Assembly: GCA_001800135.1 (NCBI GenBank)
Contig: MGUU01000002.1
Span: forward strand, 2,388-66,387
Length of the DNA stretch: 64,000 nucleotides
Source: Elusimicrobia bacterium RIFCSPLOWO2_02_FULL_39_32
GTDB lineage: Bacteria; Elusimicrobiota; Elusimicrobia; 2-02-FULL-39-32
Direction: 5' to 3'
The translations under genes and the position numbers were made by a program. The notes under the pieces were generated by a model. It saw only the letters and a program-made list of their open reading frames with translations. It was not told the DNA's origin and did no database searches. Below are positions 11,292 through 63,670 of the stretch, piece by piece. Numbering within the stretch: position 1 is the first letter of the stretch; the number at the start of each line of letters is the position of its first letter.

Positions 11292-11930
11292 ATGCAACTG
11301 ATTGAACATTATCTATCTCTGCAAGGAGAAGGGCTGCGTACAGGAAAATTAACCTATTTTGTCCGTTTCGCTCGATGTAATTTACGCTGCAGTTGGTGTG
11401 ACTCAACCTATACCTTTGGTAAAGGCAAACCTATTTCTTTTGAAGCAATTGCCCAAGCCATTAAAAAAAGCAAAGCCCACTATGTTTGCCTTACTGGGGG
11501 CGAACCTTTATTGCATACAAAAGATTGCATTGAACTCATCCGCCATTTTCCAAATCTGCATTTTGATGTTGAGACCAGCGGCTCTATTGCGATTCAGCCT
11601 GTACAGCTAAAGAATAGCTCTATCATCATGGATTGGAAACTGAACCACAGCAAAATGAGCCACAAGATGAAACAGGAAAACTTTAGCTGCCTGCGCAAAA
11701 ATCAGGATCTGCTTAAATTTGTTACCGACGGCTCAAAGGAAGAACAAATGGAAATTTTAAAGATTGAGAAAAAAACAAGAAAATTTGGATTTTTAATTTC
11801 CCTGCAACCTGTGTTTGGAACCAATCCAGAAAAATGCGCTAACTGGCTCATCTCTTTAAAAAATCCCAGGTTTCAATTTAATCTCCAACTCCACAAAACA
11901 ATCTGGTCTCCCACCCAAACCAGGGTTTAA
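11292..11930 (+). CDS. queE: 7-carboxy-7-deazaguanine synthase (radical SAM)
   Basis: CNLRCSWCDS cluster motif and the QueE fold. Divergent from queG. Confidence 0.8.
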   Translation: MQLIEHYLSLQGEGLRTGKLTYFVRFARCNLRCSWCDSTYTFGKGKPISFEAIAQAIKKSKAHYVCLTGGEPLLHTKDCIELIRHFPNLHFDVETSGSIAIQPVQLKNSSIIMDWKLNHSKMSHKMKQENFSCLRKNQDLLKFVTDGSKEEQMEILKIEKKTRKFGFLISLQPVFGTNPEKCANWLISLKNPRFQFNLQLHKTIWSPTQTRV

Positions 11931-12089
11931 CCCGAAGATTGCATTAGAAAATGAGAACCGAGACGGAAAAGATAGTCATTTTTTCGAAACAAAAAAGTGA
12001 GAGAATACTTGAAAGTATTCACGAACTTTTTTGTGAAAAAAAATGGCTAGATTTTCTGTCGAATTCCATTTTCTAATGCAATCTTCGGG
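11931..12089. repeat. MITE-like palindromic element, copy C (longest). It is flanked by 5-bp direct repeats TTTAA at 11926-11930 and 12090-12094.
   Basis: Inverted termini are CCCGAAGATTGCATTAGAAAATG ... CATTTTCTAATGCAATCTTCGGG. The internal core is GAGAACCGAGACGGAAAAGATAG, followed by a roughly 90-bp insert. It sits immediately after the queE TAA. Confidence 0.7.
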
Positions 12090-12140
12090 TTTAATTGTTG
12101 AAAAAAATGATGGATTCTGTTATAGTTTTCACACATTTAA

Positions 12141-22455: not shown

Positions 22456-23088
22456 ATGGCTACTATTGATATATCCATAGAAATAAAAAATGGCATGGTC
22501 CATTGGCCAGATAACCCACCTGTCTCCATTAAGCGGATCTTAGATTTAAAACGAAAAGATTCCTGCACACTCTCTTTAATCTCCATGGGTAGCCATACAG
22601 GAACTCATATGGATGCACCTGTCCATTTTTTAAAAAATGGACAGGGAATTGACAAAATGCCTTTAGATGCTGTGCTTGGCAAAGCGCGAGTAATTGAAAT
22701 CAAAGATCCAGAAGCGATTAAGGTTAAAGAATTAATAAAATATAAAATTCGTTCGGGAGAACGGATTCTTTTTAAAACAAGAAATTCTAAACAATGTTGG
22801 AAAACTAACAGCTTCATAAAAAATTTTGTTTACATTAGTAAAGAAGCTGCCCAATTTTTAGGTAAACTAAAAGTAAAAACTGTTGGAATTGACTATCTTT
22901 CTGTCGGAGGATATGCAAAGAATGGGGTTGAAATCCATCGCACTCTAATCTCTTCAAAAATTTGGATTATTGAAGGATTAAATCTTTCCAAAGTAAAACC
23001 AGGGAGATATGATTTAATCTGCCTCCCTTTAAAAATTTTAGATGGAGATGGAAGCCCTGCCAGAGCAATCTTAAAAACAACCTCTTAG
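22456..23088 (+). CDS. Cyclase-family protein (kynurenine formamidase-like)
   Basis: HTGTHMDAPVHF metal-binding motif. Confidence 0.75.
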   Translation: MATIDISIEIKNGMVHWPDNPPVSIKRILDLKRKDSCTLSLISMGSHTGTHMDAPVHFLKNGQGIDKMPLDAVLGKARVIEIKDPEAIKVKELIKYKIRSGERILFKTRNSKQCWKTNSFIKNFVYISKEAAQFLGKLKVKTVGIDYLSVGGYAKNGVEIHRTLISSKIWIIEGLNLSKVKPGRYDLICLPLKILDGDGSPARAILKTTS

Positions 23089-23228: not shown

Positions 23229-23783
23229 TTGATGAGTGAATCAAAATCAGACTCTGATATTATTCAGGAAATTAGAAATGGAGAGATTCAATCCTTTGCT
23301 GAAATTATTAAAAAATATCAAAATAAGGTTTTAAACCTTTGTCATTCAATTGTAGGCGAGTCCCATGCTGAAGATGCTGCCCAGGAAATCTTCATAAAAG
23401 CTTATCAATCTCTTCCTAATCTTAAAATATCATCCTTTTTTTCTACCTGGCTTTATAGAATCGCTTACAACCACTGCCTCAACATCCTTTCTAAACAAAA
23501 AATAAATAATACTGTATCTTTAGATGCTCTAGATCAGGAAATAGAGGGAATTGATCCTACTTTTCCATCCAAATTAGAAACCGAAGAAGCAAAAGAGCTG
23601 ATCCAAAAAGCTTTAGAACTTCTCCCCCCAGAGGCTCGAATGATTCTTACCCTTAGAGAAATGGAAGGTTTAAGCTATAAAGAACTCGCTCTATTACTTG
23701 AAATTCCTGTAGAGACCATCAAGGTTCGACTTTTTAGAGCAAGAAAATCACTGATCTTAGCCTTTAAAAAAATAGGCCTGTAA
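23229..23783 (+). CDS. ECF-type RNA polymerase sigma-70 factor
   Basis: Sigma-70 region 2 (FSTWLYRIAYNHCLN) and region 4 HTH (LSYKELALLLEIPVETIKVRL). Confidence 0.85.
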   Translation: MMSESKSDSDIIQEIRNGEIQSFAEIIKKYQNKVLNLCHSIVGESHAEDAAQEIFIKAYQSLPNLKISSFFSTWLYRIAYNHCLNILSKQKINNTVSLDALDQEIEGIDPTFPSKLETEEAKELIQKALELLPPEARMILTLREMEGLSYKELALLLEIPVETIKVRLFRARKSLILAFKKIGL

Positions 23784-29039: not shown

Positions 29040-29187
29040 AAATCTATTGATCCTTTCTCCAAATAAAAAAATCAGAATTGCGCTTGTTTAGGGCGCAGCC
29101 ATATTTAATCACCTAAAAAATCTCTGTAAGATTCTCCAAAACTTGACGACTAAGGGGTAGAAGCTGTATTGTAAAGGAGAATCTTTC

Positions 29188-30297
29188 ATGAGCATAAGTG
29201 TCTTCATTTTATTTGCTGGACTCTTTTTATCTTATTCAAACGGAGCGAACGATAATTTTAAAGGAGTAGCGACTTTGTTTGGAAGCGGAGCTTCCAATTA
29301 TAAACGCGCTCTCTATTGGGCAACGTTCACAACTTTCCTTGGATCTTTGGCTGCTTTATTTTTTTCAAAAGGGTTAGTTGCAGTTTTTAGTGGAAAGGGG
29401 TTGGTGCCAAACTTAAGTACAGAGATGCCCTTGTTTTTATTCTCTCTTGGTTTAGGGTCAGCGCTCACTATTTATCTCGCTACTGTGACAGGTTTCCCCA
29501 TCTCTACAACTCATGCTCTTGTTGGCGGACTGATCGGCGCAGGCCTTGCAGTAGGACAAAACATTCAGATCGAAAAACTCTGGAACATTTATCTATTACC
29601 ACTCCTATTTTCTCCTCTAATCTCTCTAATTCTAACTCGAGCTTTCTATCCTTTATTTCAATCTCTAAGAGAAGTGTGTGGCATCAATGGCCAAACCTGT
29701 TTTTGTATTAATGGTAAAGAAGAGATTGTGGAAGTAACACCAGGAGGAGCTGCAATATTAAAATCATCTGGTATTACTTTAACAATAGATCAGGTCTCTG
29801 TGTGCCAAACCCGCTACATGGGCACGCTTTTAGGTTTGAGAGCACAGACTGTTCTTGACCGGGTTCATTATCTCAGCGCAGGCGCAGTGAGCTTTGCCCG
29901 AGGACTGAATGACGCCCCTAAGATAGCGGCTTTGATGATTGGCGCTAAAATTTTTGGAATTAATAATGCCATCTTGTGGGTTGGGAGCCTTATGGTTTTG
30001 GGAGGATTACTCAATGCGCGCAAAGTAGCTCAAACCATGAGCAAAAAAATTACTCCGATGAACCACGGTCAAGGCTTTACAGCCAATTTAGTTTCTGCGA
30101 TTCTTGTGACTACAGCATCATTTTTTAGTCTTCCTGTTTCAACCACGCATGTGACCTGCGGCGCGATTTTTGGAATTGGCATGGTAAGCCAGAAAGCTGA
30201 TTGGAGGATGATTAGAAATATTTTAATCTCTTGGCTAATTACGCTGCCGGTTGCCGGAATATTATCGGCATCAATTTTATTATTACTGAAAAATTAG
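29188..30297 (+). CDS. PiT-family inorganic phosphate (potentially arsenate) transporter
   Basis: GANDNFKGVATLFGSG and duplicated PISTTH / PVSTTH signature motifs of the PHO4/PiT family. Confidence 0.8.
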   Translation: MSISVFILFAGLFLSYSNGANDNFKGVATLFGSGASNYKRALYWATFTTFLGSLAALFFSKGLVAVFSGKGLVPNLSTEMPLFLFSLGLGSALTIYLATVTGFPISTTHALVGGLIGAGLAVGQNIQIEKLWNIYLLPLLFSPLISLILTRAFYPLFQSLREVCGINGQTCFCINGKEEIVEVTPGGAAILKSSGITLTIDQVSVCQTRYMGTLLGLRAQTVLDRVHYLSAGAVSFARGLNDAPKIAALMIGAKIFGINNAILWVGSLMVLGGLLNARKVAQTMSKKITPMNHGQGFTANLVSAILVTTASFFSLPVSTTHVTCGAIFGIGMVSQKADWRMIRNILISWLITLPVAGILSASILLLLKN

Positions 30298-30449
30298 GGG
30301 AAAAATATGACCGAGCTTCAGCGACTGGAGGTGACGTCCCAAAGGGACTGTCCCTTCCTAATAAAAAATTTTTTAAGAGGAGGGACGAAGTCACACTCTC
30401 GTCCTTTAGGAAGGAATGGTTGTTCATTGATCTGTTTTAGGAGAAAACC
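30298..30449 (+). promoter_or_regulatory. Structured intergenic leader: stem-loops with alternative pairings upstream of the radical-SAM/ArsM gene
   Basis: Hairpins AAGGGA-CTG-TCCCTT and GGACGA...TCGTCC. GTGACGTCCC can also pair with GGGACGAAGTCAC. A strong RBS AGGAGAAAACCATG follows. Confidence 0.35.
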
Positions 30450-32966
30450 ATGACTGAAGAGATTAAAAATTCCACTATTTTTTATAAACCTAATTTAGAG
30501 ACATGGGGAAAAAATGAGTTTCAGTTTTTTTTAGATGGCGATTCACCCAACTGGATCGCTGTAGATGAGAGAGGATCCCAGATTCTTCAATGGGTGAATG
30601 GGCAAAGGAACTTTGGTGAGATCCTGCGACTCTACAGCCAAACTCAAATGTTTGATTTTGCAAAATCCTGGCTCCATTGTCACACTTTTCTAAAAGAGGC
30701 ATTGCAGCGAGGGATTATTTCTCTCCAACCTTTTGAAACATCCCCCTATCTAGGCAGAAGCCATTATCTTAAAACCGAAAAGCTAAAAGAATTTTGGATT
30801 CATTTAACTCAAACCTGCAACCTCGCCTGCACCCATTGTTTGGTTTCTTCCGGCCCCCAAGGAGAGAAAGGAATGAATACAGAATTTTATATCCGCGCCA
30901 TTGACGAAACTAGCGGTTTAGGCGTTGAACGCTATTACTTTACCGGCGGGGAACCTTTCGCTCGTCCGGATATTTTTGAACTTATTCGATATACAACAGA
31001 AACAAAACAAAAAGAATTAATTATTCTAACGAATGCAACCCTTTTTACCAATGCGCGGATTGAACAGCTTAAAAAACTGAGTCGAGAAAAAGTGAAATTT
31101 CAGGTGAGCATAGATGGAACGACTGCTCTAACAAACAATGCTATCCGGGGAACAGGTGTTTTTGAAAAGGCATGTCAGGGACTACGCGCCTTAAGCGAAC
31201 TTAGGTTTGAAACTTCTTTAACTGCCGTGGTCACAAAAAAGAATATAAAGGAACTAGAAAACTTGCCCAAGCTTGCCAAGGAACTGGGAGCCAAATCTAT
31301 TCACCTCATGTGGCTCCATAAAAGAGGCCGAATTTTGGAATCTGCGGATTCTTCTTTTCCAACCACAGCGGAACTTTTGCATTTGGCAAAAAGTGTAAAG
31401 CTCTCCTCAGAAAATTTAGGAATTGTTTTTGATAATATGGAATCTCTTAAACTTCGTATAAACGGTCAACCTAATGTTAAATACGATTTAGGAATGATGG
31501 GTTGGGAAAGTTTGTGCCTCTATCTCAATGGGGAGCTCTATCCTTCTGCTGCAATGGCTGGTCACACGGATTTAACTCTTGGCGCTCTCAATGGCAAAAC
31601 AATTCAAGAGCTTTGGCTTAAAAGCGATTTAGCGGATCGCATCCGCAATTTAAGCGTGATTCAAAAAGTTTCAACCCTGAAGAATCCTTTTCAGTTTCTA
31701 ACAGGCGGCGGAGACATTGAACATAGTTATTTTTTCTCTGCCAATGGACAGCAAGGAAACTTTCTCGCGCCAGATCCTTATTACGAAATTTATGTTGAAC
31801 TGATAAAAGAGATCATGCTAGATTTAGCAGTTCAAAAAAAAGAAACGATTAATCAAAAATCTGGGTTCAATGCTCCAGTTATTTTCCATTCCATGGGAGA
31901 AGATGCTATCACTTGCAGTGAAGATGCTTTAGGCTGGTTAAATTCAAACGAATTGCCAACAGTGCGCTTGCTCCATTCTAACTGCGTCCTTTCCTTTGAT
32001 GTAGAAAAACCATATAAAGCGGTACAAAAATTTTATGGAAAAGCTGCTGAAAAACCGCAGGAAGAGCTTTGCTGCCCAATAAAATATGACGACCATGAGA
32101 TCAGCCACATTCCACAAGAGGTGCTTGATCGTTTTTATGGGTGCGGCTCCCCCATTTCCCTTTCTCAAGTAAAAGAAGGAGAAACAACTCTGGATCTAGG
32201 TTCTGGCGCTGGCATAGACTGTTTTATAGCGGCAAAAAAAGTAGGCGCTTTGGGAAAAGTGATTGGCATTGACATGACAGATCAAATGCTTGAAGTTGCA
32301 AATCGCTGCAAAGAAACAGTAACAAAAAATCTTGGGTACGATGTAGTGGAATTTAAAAAAGGGTATCTGGAAAAAATTCCTGCGCCAGACCGATCTATAG
32401 ACTTAGTCACTTCTAACTGCGTAATCAATTTATCCCCAAATAAAAAAAAGGTGTTTGCGGAAATTTGGCGCATCTTAAAAGATACCGGCCGTTTTGTGGT
32501 GGCAGATATAGTCTCTGACATATCTGTGCCAATTTCTCTGCAAGCTCACCAAGAGCTTTGGGGGGAGTGTATTTCCGGCTCTTTATCGGAAGATGAATTT
32601 CTCGCTCAGCTCCAAAAAGCGGGGTTCTACGGGATTTCGCTTCTAAAAAAAACATTCTGGAAAGAGGTGGAAGGCGTAAAGTTTTACTCCATCACAGTGC
32701 GCGGATTCAAATTTGAAAAAAAGGAAGGATGTAAATTTATAGGACAAAAAGCGATCTATCTTGGTCCCTACCAATCCATAATGGATGAAGAAGGTCACCT
32801 CTTCCCTCGTGGAGAAGCAGTAGAGATTTGCACAGATACCGCTGCCAAACTACAAGCAGAACCGTACATGAACCAATTTCATATTCTAGAGCCCAGAAAT
32901 CAAACAAAAATTAAATTTGAAGTTAAAGAGAACAGTTCAAACTGTTGTGGTCCAAGCTGCTGCTGA
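30450..32966 (+). CDS. Fusion protein: PqqD-like (RRE) domain, then radical SAM domain, then ArsM-type As(III) S-adenosylmethionine methyltransferase with a Cys-rich tail
   Basis: N-terminus [27 protein letters not shown] is PqqD-like. CNLACTHC is a radical SAM cluster motif. The C-terminal half aligns to ArsM ([40 protein letters not shown]). All four As-binding Cys equivalents are present: LCCP, GCGSP, SNCV, WGECISG. It ends NCCGPSCC. Confidence 0.8.
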
Positions 32967-38416: not shown

Positions 38417-39955
38417 ATGCCATTAACTAAAGATATTGTAACCATCCCCCCCATGGACAAGCACAACCAAACCCTTGTTTCCAACGTGCATCCATCCAAC
38501 TGGGAAAATCCAACCCCTACAGAAGTCTATAACTTAGTTGTGATTGGAGGAGGTACTGCCGGGCTGGTTACCGCGATTGGGGCAGCAGGTCTGGGAGCAA
38601 AGGTAGCCCTCATAGAAAAACATTTAATGGGCGGAGACTGCTTAAACGTGGGCTGCGTTCCTTCTAAGGCGATAATTCGTTCTTCCCGAGTAGTCGCAGA
38701 AATTCGTGAAGCCTCTTCCTATGGAGTCCGAGTTCCGGATGGGACCGAAGCTAACTTTGCAGCAGTCATGGAGCGGGTGCGTAAGCTCCGAGCTGGCATT
38801 AGCCACCACGACTCTGCGGAAAGATATAAAAATTTAGGTATAGATGTATTTCTTGGGGAAGCGCAATTTAAAACAAGTTATAGCGTTGAAGTAAACGGAA
38901 AAATTCTAAAATTTAAGAAGGCGGTTATTGCCACCGGAGCCAGAGCCGCTCACCCACCTATTCCGGGACTTCCAGAAGCGGGGTTTCTTACTAACGAAAC
39001 TGTTTTCAATCTTACCTCTCTACCAAAAAGATTTCTCATTGTTGGCGCAGGTCCCATCGGCTGTGAGTTAGCCCAAGCATTTAGTCGTTTAGGATCCGAA
39101 GTCCATCTTTTTGAGGCGATGCATGGATTTCTTCCCAGAGAGGATCAGGATGCGGCAGGAATTTTAAAGAATGGTTTTGATAAAGAGAAAATCCATTCCC
39201 TTTGCTGCTGCAATATTTTAAAGGTAGAAAAGCGCGGGATGGAAAAGATTGTACATTTCACGGCGAAACACGAGGGGGAAAAACCTCAAGAAATTGCGGT
39301 AGATGAAATTTTGATTGGGGTAGGACGAATTCCTAATGTAACCGGTTTGAACCTTGAAACCGTCGGAGTAAAATATGATTCGAAGTCCGGAGTTCAAACG
39401 AACGATTATCTCCAAACGACCAACCCCAACATTTATGCCGCCGGTGACATCTGTCTTAAATATAAGTTTACTCACACTGCGGATGCAACAGCTCGCATTG
39501 TGATACAAAATGCTCTTTTCTTTAACAGTAAAAAAGTAAGTTCTCTAATTGTTCCCTGGTGCACTTACACAGACCCGGAAATCGCGCACGTTGGTCTCTA
39601 TGAACAGGAAGCGAAAGAAAAGGGAATTGAAGTTGAAACTTTTACGCGTGAATTTAAAGAAGTGGACCGAGCGATCCTAGACGGAGAAACAGAAGGCTTT
39701 GTGAAAGTGCATGTAAAAAAAGGGACAGATACAATTCTGGGATCCACGATTGTTTCCCGCCACGCGGGAGACATGATTAGCGAAATCACTTTAGCGATGA
39801 CCGCAAAAGTGGGGCTAGGAACCATTGCAAACGCAATTCATCCTTACCCAACACAAGCCGAAGCGATTAAACAGGTTGCAGATGCCTACAATCGTACCCG
39901 ACTCACCCCAACCATTAAAAAAATAATTTCCAATTGGCTTGTCTGGAGAAGGTAG
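38417..39955 (+). CDS. FAD-dependent pyridine nucleotide-disulfide oxidoreductase (class I; dihydrolipoamide dehydrogenase / MerA-like core without the C-terminal Cys pair)
   Basis: GGGTAGLVTA FAD motif. Redox disulfide GGDCLNVGCVPSK. NAD motif and dimerisation domain. RBS AAGGAGG precedes the ATG at 38417. Confidence 0.8.
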   Translation: MPLTKDIVTIPPMDKHNQTLVSNVHPSNWENPTPTEVYNLVVIGGGTAGLVTAIGAAGLGAKVALIEKHLMGGDCLNVGCVPSKAIIRSSRVVAEIREASSYGVRVPDGTEANFAAVMERVRKLRAGISHHDSAERYKNLGIDVFLGEAQFKTSYSVEVNGKILKFKKAVIATGARAAHPPIPGLPEAGFLTNETVFNLTSLPKRFLIVGAGPIGCELAQAFSRLGSEVHLFEAMHGFLPREDQDAAGILKNGFDKEKIHSLCCCNILKVEKRGMEKIVHFTAKHEGEKPQEIAVDEILIGVGRIPNVTGLNLETVGVKYDSKSGVQTNDYLQTTNPNIYAAGDICLKYKFTHTADATARIVIQNALFFNSKKVSSLIVPWCTYTDPEIAHVGLYEQEAKEKGIEVETFTREFKEVDRAILDGETEGFVKVHVKKGTDTILGSTIVSRHAGDMISEITLAMTAKVGLGTIANAIHPYPTQAEAIKQVADAYNRTRLTPTIKKIISNWLVWRR

Positions 39956-39965
39956 TGGTTCACAC

Positions 39966-40463
39966 CTATTTTTCCTCAAAAGAATTTAATCGTTCCAAAT
40001 CTTGAAGATCCTGATATCTTCCTGCAAGTTTTTTTAACTTGATCAGTAAATCTTTAGAAATGAAATAGGCTGGCTCACCAAAAAATTCTCCTAAGACTTT
40101 CTTTCCCCATGCTTCGTCAAATTCTACTCCTTCGAGGTAAGTCATCATTTCTATTTTAAATTCTCCACTCCCAATTTCAATTCTCTGTTTAGGCGCCATG
40201 ATTGTTTCTATAGATAGTTTAGAACCTGAAAATTCCATAACAGCGTTGGAAACGCGTTGACCATTTTCATAAGATTGCCTAATCCAAAAATCCATATCCT
40301 TACTAGAACGAGCAAAATGTCCATGAAACATGGACGCGTGAGCGCCTATAATGAGATACTCTACTTCATGTTTATTCAAAACTTTTAAAAATACGGCGTA
40401 ATCGTCTTGGAGAGGTAAATTTTCCATTCTAAAAAACGAGGAATCTAACCTTACTACGATCAA
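39966..40463 (-). CDS. Hypothetical protein, possible pol-beta-type nucleotidyltransferase
   Basis: G-x(14)-DMD motif (IIGAHASMFHGHFARSSKDMDFW). Confidence 0.4.
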   Translation of the reverse strand: MIVVRLDSSFFRMENLPLQDDYAVFLKVLNKHEVEYLIIGAHASMFHGHFARSSKDMDFWIRQSYENGQRVSNAVMEFSGSKLSIETIMAPKQRIEIGSGEFKIEMMTYLEGVEFDEAWGKKVLGEFFGEPAYFISKDLLIKLKKLAGRYQDLQDLERLNSFEEK

Positions 40464-40620
40464 TACGGATAGATTTAGGATCCATTTTCAATATTCCTAC
40501 ATAACTATTCCGCATAATAAAAGCCCACGATCTTAAAACATCAGAATAAGATTTTTCTTTCAAGTCCTGTGGAGCGTTCCAAGGCACTATTTTTATTTCA
40601 AAGCGACTATCCATAACCAT
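40429..40620 (-). CDS. Small hypothetical ORF overlapping the downstream nucleotidyltransferase-like gene by 35 nt
   Basis: ORF only. Possible antitoxin-like partner or frameshifted N-terminus. Confidence 0.25.
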   Translation of the reverse strand: MVMDSRFEIKIVPWNAPQDLKEKSYSDVLRSWAFIMRNSYVGILKMDPKSIRIDRSKVRFLVF

Positions 40621-40740
40621 TCTCCTTCCGCTTTAAATAGATTACATAAATCATTATAACATGAGAACTTAAGAACTTGCGATCAAAAATTTACAAAAAA
40701 TTTGAAAGAAGGGTTTTGCTAGATTACAATTTTCATAAAA

Positions 40741-40774
40741 TCTGTTTACTATGATTATACTTGTTTACCAAAAA
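40741..40774. repeat. Direct repeat copy 1 (TCTGTTTACTATGATTATACTTGTTTACCAAAAA)
   Basis: Near-identical to 41728-41766. It contains TATAAT on the minus strand. Confidence 0.6.
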
Positions 40775-40852
40775 TCCTGACTTTCGCAAAACTGGGATAA
40801 ATTGTTAGTGCAATGTGCAAATTGCATTGATAAATCAATGGGACATATCTAT

Positions 40853-41119
40853 CTAATATTTTGATTTACGCAGATGCAATTTGATCTGAGATTTTTTTTC
40901 TTGAGAAAGGTTTATGTTAGAGACTAAACTGACTGTATGATCTGCCCAGCCTTTAAGGACTCGGCGCAAAAAATCAAGTTGCCTCATGTAAGTTGGGCAG
41001 ACTTTACACATGGCAAGATGGATTTTAAGAGAAACTTTTTCCCAAAAAGGAATGGCATGATCCATTGATTCTGAGATCAATTTAGAAGCTTCTTCACAAG
41101 AGATCATTCTTAAACTCAT
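40853..41119 (-). CDS. Anti-sigma factor, zf-HC2 (ZAS) type, soluble
   Basis: HLAMCKVCPTY motif. Immediately downstream of the ECF sigma. Confidence 0.65.
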   Translation of the reverse strand: MSLRMISCEEASKLISESMDHAIPFWEKVSLKIHLAMCKVCPTYMRQLDFLRRVLKGWADHTVSLVSNINLSQEKKSQIKLHLRKSKY

Positions 41120-41125
41120 ATTTTT

Positions 41126-41737
41126 CTACTTATTAAACCAATTCTTTTCTAAACAACTTTTAAGGCGGTTGCGAATCCGATAAAGCATGACCCATAGATT
41201 GGTCGTTGTGACATTAAAAATCTTACAAAGCTCGTCGCTTTCCACTTCGCTGATCTCGCGCATGAGGAAAAGTTGCTTTGCCTTTTCCGGCAGATGATCT
41301 AAACAATTTTGAAGAGTTTCTCTAAAGCTAAGTTCCTCTACAATCTTTTCTGGAGAAAGTTCCCATTCTTTCACTAAAATTTTTTGAGGTCGTGGACCAC
41401 TTGACTCCTCATCCGCATTTAAACAAGCAAAACTTGTCTCTTCCAAAGAAATTGTTTTCTTTTGAGATCTAAAATGATCCATGATCTTGTGCTTTAAAAT
41501 TCCAATGAGCCATGTTTTTGGAGAGGATTGGTTACGAAAGGAATCTATAGATTTTAGCGCAGCAACAAATGTGTCCTGCACAAGATCCTCTGCAATAGTA
41601 GAATTTTGAACACGAACTAATGCAAAGCGATACAAAACATCTGAATGGTCGTCAACCCAAAGGTCAAAAAGCGCATTTTGTCCGTTATTATCTATTGAAT
41701 CAGATTGTTTTTGTTCTTCGCCTTCACTCTGTTTCAT
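41126..41737 (-). CDS. ECF-type RNA polymerase sigma factor
   Basis: Region 2 (DLVQDTFVAALKS) and region 4. The track start at 41761 is a TTG. The ATG at 41735-41737 is the likelier start. Confidence 0.85.
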   Translation of the reverse strand: MKQSEGEEQKQSDSIDNNGQNALFDLWVDDHSDVLYRFALVRVQNSTIAEDLVQDTFVAALKSIDSFRNQSSPKTWLIGILKHKIMDHFRSQKKTISLEETSFACLNADEESSGPRPQKILVKEWELSPEKIVEELSFRETLQNCLDHLPEKAKQLFLMREISEVESDELCKIFNVTTTNLWVMLYRIRNRLKSCLEKNWFNK

Positions 41738-41766
41738 GCTATGATTATACTTGTTTACCAAAAAAA
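41728..41766. repeat. Direct repeat copy 2 (TCTGTTTCATGCTATGATTATACTTGTTTACCAAAAAA). It spans the sigma start codon and the divergent promoter region.
   Basis: Identical to copy 1 except for a 4-nt indel. Confidence 0.6.
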
Positions 41767-41787
41767 TATCTGTAAGGAGGAGGAATC

Positions 41788-42021
41788 ATGTCCAAACAGA
41801 ATGCCCCATACGTTATTCAGGAACAACCAGGGAAAAAAGCATGGTGTGCCTGCGGAGAATCGGAAATGCAACCCTACTGCGATGGTTCCCATGCAAGAAA
41901 AAATACAGGAAAAAAGCCTATAGTCGTTGAGATCACCGAAGCTAAAACAGTTGCATGGTGCGGCTGTAAAGAGTCAGGCAATAAACCATACTGTGATGGT
42001 ACGCATGCTAAGCTAAAATAG
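41788..42021 (+). CDS. CDGSH iron-sulfur domain protein (two CDGSH motifs)
   Basis: CACGESEMQPYCDGSH and CGCKESGNKPYCDGTH. RBS AAGGAGGAGG. Confidence 0.8.
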   Translation: MSKQNAPYVIQEQPGKKAWCACGESEMQPYCDGSHARKNTGKKPIVVEITEAKTVAWCGCKESGNKPYCDGTHAKLK

Positions 42022-62861: not shown

Positions 62862-63234
62862 TTTTTGGGAGAACTTTGATCCTTCTCTTTATTTTTTCTG
62901 CCGCTAATGGCAACGTATAGGACAAACCAGAGGAAGACTCCAATCAGAACAAAAACTGGCCATTCTTGAGAAAAATTAAAATGCATTCTTTTATTCCTCC
63001 AATGAAGCCCTTTTATTTTTCTACAAAAAATAAAAAAGCCGCTCACCTTAAGGCAACTCAAAACCTTAAAGTGATGGCGGCCCGACCATCTTATTGTTTA
63101 ACCTCCAAGAACTTGAACTTAAATTCTTGGACCCTTTTCCTAACCTAATTTATAGCATGGTTTCTCTAGAATTACAACCCTATTCTTTCTCTTTGATGTC
63201 GCATTGGATTCTGATGAAGTGAGGAAAACTCCCT

Positions 63235-63573: not shown

Positions 63574-63600
63574 TCCTTATTTACCTCCATAAAGGTTCTA

Positions 63601-63670
63601 CCCGAAACTTGCATTAGAAAATGAGAACTGAGACGGAAAAGATAGCCAATTTCTAATGCCAACATTCGGG
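63601..63670. repeat. MITE-like palindromic element, copy D (minimal 70-bp form). It is flanked by 5-bp direct repeats TTCTA at 63596-63600 and 63671-63675.
   Basis: Termini CCCGAAACTTGCATTAGAAAATG ... TTTCTAATGCCAACATTCGGG. Core GAGAACTGAGACGGAAAAGATAG. The right-hand repeat overlaps the crcB stop codon. Confidence 0.7.

Follow-up and report, generated by a model that had tools for sequence, protein, structure and literature searches.

Why does a sequence of some 35 nucleotides (nt) stand at both ends of a gene pair encoding an extracytoplasmic function (ECF) sigma factor and a ZAS-type anti-sigma factor? We addressed this question in a 64,000-nt stretch of contig MGUU01000002.1 from Elusimicrobia bacterium RIFCSPLOWO2_02_FULL_39_32 (positions 2,388 to 66,387 of the forward strand), the whole of which is referred to here as the window. 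The initial annotation of the window, made from the letters alone, had read this direct repeat either as a duplicated promoter or operator, serving sigma autoregulation and the control of downstream nucleotidyltransferase (NTase)-like genes, or as the footprint of a recombination or cassette-insertion event that brought in the gene pair. Our analysis favors a different combination, to which we assign a probability of roughly 70%: the repeat as a whole consists of the sigma gene's own promoter together with a recent, small, illegitimate duplicate of it that lies upstream of two small genes. The features on which the argument depends are the following.

41728 to 41764, minus strand: copy 2 of the repeat (TTTTTGGTAAACAAGTATAATCATAGCATGAAACAGA), predicted core promoter native to the ECF sigma gene, with its start codon and first 10 coding nt
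41744 to 41749, minus strand: -10 hexamer TATAAT of copy 2, 6 nt upstream of the sigma ATG
40741 to 40774, minus strand: copy 1 of the repeat (TTTTTGGTAAACAAGTATAATCATAGTAAACAGA), predicted partial sigma promoter (-29 to +10) without the ATG
40759 to 40754, minus strand: TATAAT of copy 1
41126 to 41737, minus strand: ECF sigma factor gene, 203 amino acids (aa) from the ATG at 41737, with Pfam domains Sigma70_r2 and Sigma70_r4_2
40853 to 41119, minus strand: ZAS-type anti-sigma gene, 88 aa, with an HxxxCxxC motif (Pfam zf-HC2; NCBIfam antisigmaE subfamily)

The direct repeat and its limits

The repeat is real, non-random, and sharply bounded, at 34 nt in copy 1 versus 37 nt in copy 2. A repeat search of the window returned a 26-nt exact direct repeat (40749-40774 = 41739-41764) with a spacing of 990 nt, and the heptamer TCTGTTT lies 5' of the 26-mer in both copies (40741-40747 and 41728-41734, respectively); the shared lengths just given include this 7-nt flank. 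With up to three mismatches allowed, the 26-mer matches the window at exactly two places and was matched in none of 100 dinucleotide-preserving shuffles, while self-BLAST of the window returned no third copy. The direct repeat of about 35 bp described in the initial annotation is thus confirmed. On the gene strand it reads TTTTTGGTAAACAAGTATAATCATAG[CATG/T]AAACAGA, that is, TTTTTGGTAAACAAG-TATAAT-CATAGC-ATG-AAACAGA in copy 2 and TTTTTGGTAAACAAG-TATAAT-CATAG-T-AAACAGA in copy 1, where the ATG is missing and the same coding nucleotides follow. The copies differ at this one patch only, as had been stated, but the difference is not a 4-nt indel: the plus strand has A in copy 1 versus CATG in copy 2, a net difference of 3 nt in length, which requires at least two mutational events (e.g., a 3-nt deletion and a substitution).

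Copy 2 was first given as ending at 41766, whereas the shared part stops at 41764, with the two A at 41765-41766 unmatched and a T at 40775. When 240-nt segments around both copies were aligned locally, only TTTTTGG...CATAG[CATG/T]AAACAGA was aligned; beyond its ends the flanks showed no similarity to each other and behaved like shuffled sequence (p = 0.63 and 0.51), and the repeat is therefore sharply bounded. Two further statements of the initial annotation were correct, namely that copy 2 spans the sigma start codon (ATG at 41737 to 41735, inside copy 2) and that a minus-strand TATAAT is present in the repeat (41749 to 41744 and 40759 to 40754). Copy 1 does lie downstream of the anti-sigma gene, but not just 3' of it in the sense of abutting, as 78 nt separate it from the stop codon (40853-40855).

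The predicted sigma promoter at copy 2

Homologs of the sigma protein number about 1,400; the contigs of the closest ones were fetched, and the upstream regions of eight orthologs (59-93% aa identity) were aligned. The motif GTATAAT-N6-ATG is invariant in all eight. Free variation is seen in the 6-nt spacer between TATAAT and ATG (CATAGC, TATGGC, CTTATT, CTTGTT, ATTATC, TTTATT, or TTGAAA) and in the codons that follow the ATG, and the spacers of all eight orthologs lack a Shine-Dalgarno (GGAGG-like) sequence. In most relatives, a -35 hexamer (TTGAGY or TTGTAT) at a distance of exactly 17 nt completes a sigma-70-type promoter. At other loci (L001, L002, and L018-L022), the same sigma gene has a promoter orthologous to copy 2. 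Judged from these alignments, copy 2 is the predicted housekeeping-type (sigma-70-like) core promoter of the ECF sigma gene itself together with its start codon, and the earlier term "duplicated promoter" was right in substance, copy 2 being the conserved sigma core promoter and copy 1 its copy. The minus-strand site at the repeat was not called by a consensus promoter scan.

Because TATAAT lies 6 nt from the ATG and no ribosome-binding site is present, transcription most likely begins at or near the A of the ATG. Transcription starting at or next to this A would produce a leaderless mRNA for the sigma/anti-sigma operon, and we consider it likely that the operon start is leaderless and of the housekeeping type rather than the ECF type. 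In Mycobacterium and Deinococcus, TANNNT motifs are found 7-12 bp upstream of transcription start sites, along with leaderless AUG starts (PMC3898074, PMC4007540). Other genes in the window also have the arrangement TAnnnT-N5-7-ATG, including the first ECF sigma gene at 23232, and leaderless transcripts may be common in this organism. Sites with TAAAAT or TAnnnT placed 5-7 nt before the start, with no obvious ribosome-binding site, were seen at 23232, 27051, 11292, and 9807 (all on the plus strand); besides the first ECF sigma gene, the genes with such spacing include one for a MacB-like ABC permease.

Origin of copy 1 and its distribution among relatives

Compared with L001, whose sigma protein is 81% identical, the window and a sister genome (L011) have in common a promoter deletion of about 24 nt. 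It removed the ancestral -35 region and made the junction TTTTTGG/TAAAC, and the -35 position after the deletion is occupied by CAGATA at copy 2 and by AGTCAG at copy 1. Since copy 1 has the same TTTTTGG/TAAAC junction as well as 10 nt of sigma coding sequence, it would have been copied from an already deleted copy 2; we regard this direction of copying, from copy 2 to copy 1, as very likely. On the sequence comparison, copy 1 is placed after the split from the L001 lineage, and the 10 nt of coding sequence within it argue for copying rather than for convergence on a binding site.

TTTT borders the insert at copy 1 on either side, and the ACAGA of its distal end is similar to what L011 has at the equivalent site; such short identities at sharp ends fit microhomology-level illegitimate recombination. 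We propose that copy 1 was made by an illegitimate duplication of this kind, 34 nt in length and covering approximately -29 to +10. One possible route would be a tandem duplication of 990 bp, at the junction of which ...AGTCAGGATTTTTGG... would be followed by a full second sigma gene, and then a deletion of the second unit except for its first 34 nt; a direct short templated copy would give the same product. For the 78-nt upstream and the approximately 30-nt downstream flank of copy 1, no homolog was present in the window or in the fetched loci.

All same-species contigs that extend across the site carry both copies (Rifle groundwater assemblies, including GCA_001799945.1), and L005, L007, L024, and L026 are 100% identical to the window over 39850-41830. 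The initial annotation had pointed to the presence or absence of the bracketed segment as informative. The sigma module is present in 24/24 CDGSH-bearing same-species contigs, none of which has an empty site or a circular junction, and the sister genome keeps the unit with one repeat. An apparent insertion of 59 nt in one contig (L028) is an N-gap scaffolding artifact.

The sister genome L011 is a groundwater metagenome-assembled genome (MAG) labeled Elusimicrobia (JACPBF010000001), which was found by a scan of GTDB genomes with a degenerate 20-mer query. Its sigma factor is 92% identical to that of the window at the protein level and 93% at the DNA level, with the same CDGSH/GalT-like/MerR synteny. 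L011 and the independent contig L030 contain the genes for sigma, anti-sigma, and a 62-aa protein in the same order, and have copy 2 only. Copy 1 is dispensable because these loci keep all three genes without it. Both a gain of copy 1 in the window lineage and its loss in L011 are possible, and under either of them copy 1 is young and dispensable.

The identity between the window and L011 is 93% in the sigma gene and 96.5% in the 5' half of the anti-sigma gene, versus 57% in the 3' half, and the latter half in L011 is closest to that of the much more distant L019 (70%). From this pattern we conclude that L011 is a recombinant with its breakpoint within the anti-sigma gene. The region concerned is the following.

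40709 to 40976, no strand: lineage-variable segment comprising the 3' half of the anti-sigma gene and the copy-1 spacer, with about 160 nt divergent or unrelated in L011

The recombination breakpoint is sharp and falls at about 40977, near codon 48 of the anti-sigma gene (L011 455-590). In all relatives, the C-terminal half of the ZAS anti-sigma factor evolves far faster than the N-terminal zinc-binding half.

Possible activity of copy 1

From -29 to +1, copy 1 is identical in sequence to the sigma promoter, and both copies have a poor -35 region situated beyond the limits of the repeat. Should copy 2 be active, copy 1 would probably be so too, as a weak -10-only promoter, and its transcript would have a leader of about 133 nt before the NTase-like pair of genes (61 and 153 aa). 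Going by these similarities, we see an even chance that copy 1 has promoter activity, and an equal one that it is a silent scar. The removal of the ATG, a single observation, hints at transcription of copy 1 and at intolerance of a spurious leaderless start there. No significant RNA structure was predicted at copy 1 on the minus (z = -0.37) or plus strand (z = -1.71), and there was no Rfam match around it at E <= 1; a structured RNA element was therefore rejected as a candidate.

Alternative explanations

Several points weigh against reading the repeat as the sigma promoter and its recent duplicate. In the window lineage the ancestral -35 is deleted and no TGn extended -10 is present, so that the strength of both predicted promoters is uncertain. 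The 61-aa gene beyond copy 1 has a conserved TGTTATAAT promoter of its own, and with this extended -10 it does not require copy 1 for expression. Since L011 is a recombinant, copy 1 may have disappeared from it when the segment was replaced, and the same-species contigs are identical at copy 1, so they offer no polymorphism that would bear on constraint. Further, TAT-AAT and the ATG share a reading frame in all orthologs, and upstream starts exist, namely a TTG at 41761 in the window, which gives a protein of 211 aa, and TTG, GTG, or ATG in some orthologs. These last two points would fit a different reading, in which GTATAAT-N6-ATG encodes an N-terminal extension (...N-K/R-Y-N-x-x-M...) and the repeat is a duplicated 5' coding fragment, and the gene call of P0005/L020 does begin at an upstream ATG (MNKYNII...). 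However, the N-terminus and the codons next to TATAAT vary freely, whereas TATAAT itself shows no synonymous change across the same 59-93% aa range, the upstream starts are inconsistent (TTG, GTG, ATG, CTG, or none) and have no Shine-Dalgarno sequence, the downstream ATG is the start in most gene calls and in all N-terminal alignments, and relatives have a well-spaced -35 upstream of TATAAT, all of which makes a coding role for the motif highly improbable. The in-frame promoter adds 8-10 residues to the sigma protein in open reading frame (ORF) finders and some gene callers (MVNKYNHS- or MNKYNII-; window 41761, L020 3031). These extensions are probably mis-annotations; alternatively, they may represent a longer isoform, and longer isoforms are known for some ECF12 sigma factors.

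The other alternatives keep the repeat as a promoter or operator and differ in the strand or in the sigma factor that would use it. The consensus scan found promoter-like sites on the plus strand at both copies.

41723 to 41751, plus strand: promoter-like TTCACT-17-TATACT overlapping copy 2 and directed toward the CDGSH gene, a 9/12 consensus match only
40732 to 40761, plus strand: promoter-like TTCATA-18-TATACT overlapping copy 1, antisense to the anti-sigma and sigma genes, a 9/12 consensus match only

The plus strand could thus be the functional one, with TATACT driving the CDGSH/GalT-like operon at copy 2 and an antisense RNA at copy 1. Only 50 nt lie between the sigma ATG and the start of the CDGSH gene (41788-42021), and a promoter for the latter must therefore share sequence with the repeat or with the sigma coding region; at copy 2 the -10 hexamers of the two strands overlap each other (minus strand, 41744-41749; plus strand, 41746-41751). 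We consider this reading of the repeat unlikely. The sites are matches of 9/12 in DNA that is AT-rich, and the region has 10 of them versus 6.5 +/- 2.6 in shuffles; the hexamers that resemble a -35 are not the same at the two copies and fall at the margin of the shared sequence or beyond it; no antisense RNA with a structure or a terminator was predicted (z = -1.7) and none matched Rfam; and copy 1 is absent from the sister lineage. The plus-strand site at copy 2 may nevertheless serve the CDGSH operon. Two identical bidirectional core promoters might also form a regulatory device around the operon, although we regard this as very unlikely even with its two versions taken jointly. In one version, a plus-strand RNA from copy 1 would run through the anti-sigma and sigma genes into the CDGSH operon and couple the divergent units; in the other, the 34-nt repeats would allow reversible pop-out or tandem amplification, at the RecA level, of the 990-bp unit. 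If this were so, a subpopulation would have the NTase-like pair directly behind the sigma promoter. Autoregulation is usual among ECF sigma factors (PMC7826278), which would favor a duplicated ECF-dependent autoregulatory promoter or operator, through which the sigma factor controls the NTase-like genes in addition to its own operon. The repeat does contain GTAAAC, which loosely resembles the AAC element of ECF -35 regions, and a distant ortholog (L002) has GGGAAAT-N16-CGTT upstream of its TATAAT. Yet no pair of the AAC-N16/17-CGT type (ECF -35/-10) is conserved across the eight aligned ortholog promoters, whose invariant element is a perfect housekeeping TATAAT, always 6 nt away from the ATG. 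The site of a -10 lying 16-17 nt beyond GTAAAC would coincide with the CATG/T patch, in which the copies are not identical, the AAC-containing stretch of relatives sits between a sigma-70-type -35 and -10, and an identity of 26 + 7 nt that includes coding nucleotides indicates recent copying, not selection on an element of about 10 nt. The autoregulation and operator that had been proposed initially thus find no support here, and we judge them decidedly unlikely.

The cassette explanation, in which the repeats would be att sites, a target-site duplication, or the cassette ends of a unit that delivered the sigma/anti-sigma pair, draws on the fact that the direct repeats enclose exactly one 990-bp sigma/anti-sigma unit, on the recombination-prone character of the region, and on the different neighbors of the module in relatives, where it is divergent from PHO4/radical-SAM genes (L001, L002, L020, and L022). 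It is contradicted by the sister genome, in which the pair occupies the same locus and copy 2 alone is present, and by the nature of copy 2, which corresponds in orthologs to the promoter and start codon of the gene itself rather than to target DNA. Ancestral homology upstream of the sigma gene (CTTACAGATATTTTTTTGG) also runs beyond the end of the repeat, which therefore does not mark a translocation breakpoint. No integrase, transposase, or recombinase gene is present among the annotated neighbors, and no empty site was seen in the same-species contigs. The scans for further copies were likewise negative: the GTDB scan returned one related locus, which is the sister MAG with its one copy, and all matches in JGI metagenomes (six) and IMG/VR (three) were unrelated sequences. 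A cassette-insertion footprint, the other initial proposal, is left with a very small chance of being correct. These counts (two copies in the window and one in the sister genome) also speak against a generic, many-copy repeat, and a dispersed family resembling repetitive extragenic palindromes or miniature inverted-repeat transposable elements was rejected. The module did change its neighbors in the deeper past, having been ancestrally divergent from PHO4, but the 35-bp repeat is no mark of that event.

In relatives (L001, L002/L003, L020, and L022), the sigma gene and a PHO4/(DUF2064)/radical-SAM-methyltransferase operon point away from each other, and in the window that PHO4 operon is located at 29188-32966, 12 kb away. 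An ancestral intergenic sequence of about 25 nt (CCWAAAAAATNTCTGTAAGATTYTC) is found both on the PHO4 side (29112-29136) and on the sigma/CDGSH side (41758-41776; L011 1368-1400); the old rearrangement thus left a short duplication at its junction as well. A candidate for a decayed promoter remnant next to PHO4 (29040-29112), with TAAACAAG at about the right spacing, was not significant (p = 0.07-0.28) and is not claimed.

Genes at the locus and other features of the window

Four genes lie within 39966-41737, all on the minus strand. The closest NCBIfam models of the ECF sigma factor are PRK12520 and TIGR02943, with scores below their curated cut-offs, so that no assignment to ECF18 was made. 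Downstream of copy 1 are the two small genes.

40429 to 40620, minus strand: small ORF of 63 aa, more likely 61 aa with the ATG at 40614
39966 to 40427, minus strand: ORF of 153 aa, weakly NTase-like (DUF6036/DUF2204), with a Pfam E-value of about 0.04, below the cut-off

The extended -10 of the small ORF is at 40651 to 40643 and is conserved in L011, and its ribosome-binding site is GGAAGGAG. For the functions of the 63-aa and 153-aa proteins, no match was obtained in PADLOC, NCBIfam, or PDB sequences, and their Pfam matches to NTases are sub-threshold only; the only distant homolog of the 153-aa protein, P0124, bears PF09970 and PF19502. The 153-aa gene is absent from the sister genome (L011/L030; the site is L011 85-158). 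A 64-aa/153-aa pair is also adjacent in a distant relative (L029 353-559), in a different context, and the pair is therefore an independent two-gene unit; it may be an orphan toxin-antitoxin-like pair. The 61-aa and 153-aa proteins are very rare, with two clusters each among 5.8 billion proteins. The annotated neighbors comprise genes for a pyridine-nucleotide-disulfide oxidoreductase, VTT, DUF3047, CDGSH, GalT-like, MerR, MerT/HMA, CopZ-like, and thioredoxin-like proteins.

Elsewhere in the window, an imperfect inverted repeat of about 170 nt (11924-12094; 79% self-complementary) has a partial 59-nt copy at 63594-63652 (88%), about 51 kb away. A perfect 28-nt palindrome (22618-22645) precedes the first ECF sigma gene by about 600 nt, and an nhaA-I RNA of Rfam, a riboswitch candidate, was detected at 63072-63134 on the minus strand (47.7 bits, E = 2.4e-06, above the gathering threshold).

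Implications and comparison with known systems

The repeat is an ordinary small duplication, and neither the boundary of a mobile cassette nor a special operator. This is a clean negative for a striking sequence feature, which turns out to be a gene's own promoter and its recent duplicate instead of a mobile-cassette signature or a regulon operator. The ECF sigma factor is apparently expressed from a conserved, housekeeping-type leaderless promoter and may therefore not be autoregulated, and the conserved TATAAT motif should not serve as an ECF target motif in regulon prediction. The locus also provides a case of promoter copying to a position before neighboring accessory genes by way of a tiny illegitimate duplication.

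ECF promoters have an AAC-rich -35 and a CGT-type -10 and are found upstream of the sigma/anti-sigma operon and of the regulon genes. The locus resembles this arrangement in that one copy is upstream of the sigma/anti-sigma operon and the second is before neighboring genes. It differs in that the conserved element is TATAAT, and the second copy is a verbatim 34 nt that includes coding sequence, not a degenerate site. To our knowledge, transcription start maps are not available for the groundwater MAG clade labeled Elusimicrobia. The predicted sigma promoter resembles the leaderless promoters of M. tuberculosis and Deinococcus, in which TANNNT is about 6-7 nt before the start codon (PMC3898074, PMC4007540, PMC12340547). 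The -10 is likewise at a fixed 6 nt from the ATG with no Shine-Dalgarno sequence, the geometry is conserved in orthologs, and the -35 is weak or absent in the window lineage. Unlike those mapped promoters, ours is predicted from sequence, and the gene encodes an ECF sigma factor, for which autoregulation would usually be expected.

Like the boundaries of mobile elements (target-site duplications of insertion sequences, att sites, and integron cassettes), the two direct repeats bracket a two-gene unit. Unlike those boundaries, they come with neither a recombinase or transposase gene among the annotated neighbors nor inverted terminal repeats, the repeat is the promoter of the cargo itself, a sister genome has the unit with only one repeat, and no other related copies were found. 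In bacteria, short duplications with microhomology junctions can duplicate or capture promoters. At this locus, what is left of a putative second 990-bp unit is no more than its first 34 nt, with the tandem duplication as a presumed intermediate. In its sharp ends, perfect identity, 4-5-nt microhomologies, lineage-specific copy 1, and lack of a recombinase, the repeat is similar to the known short segmental or tandem duplications formed at microhomologies.

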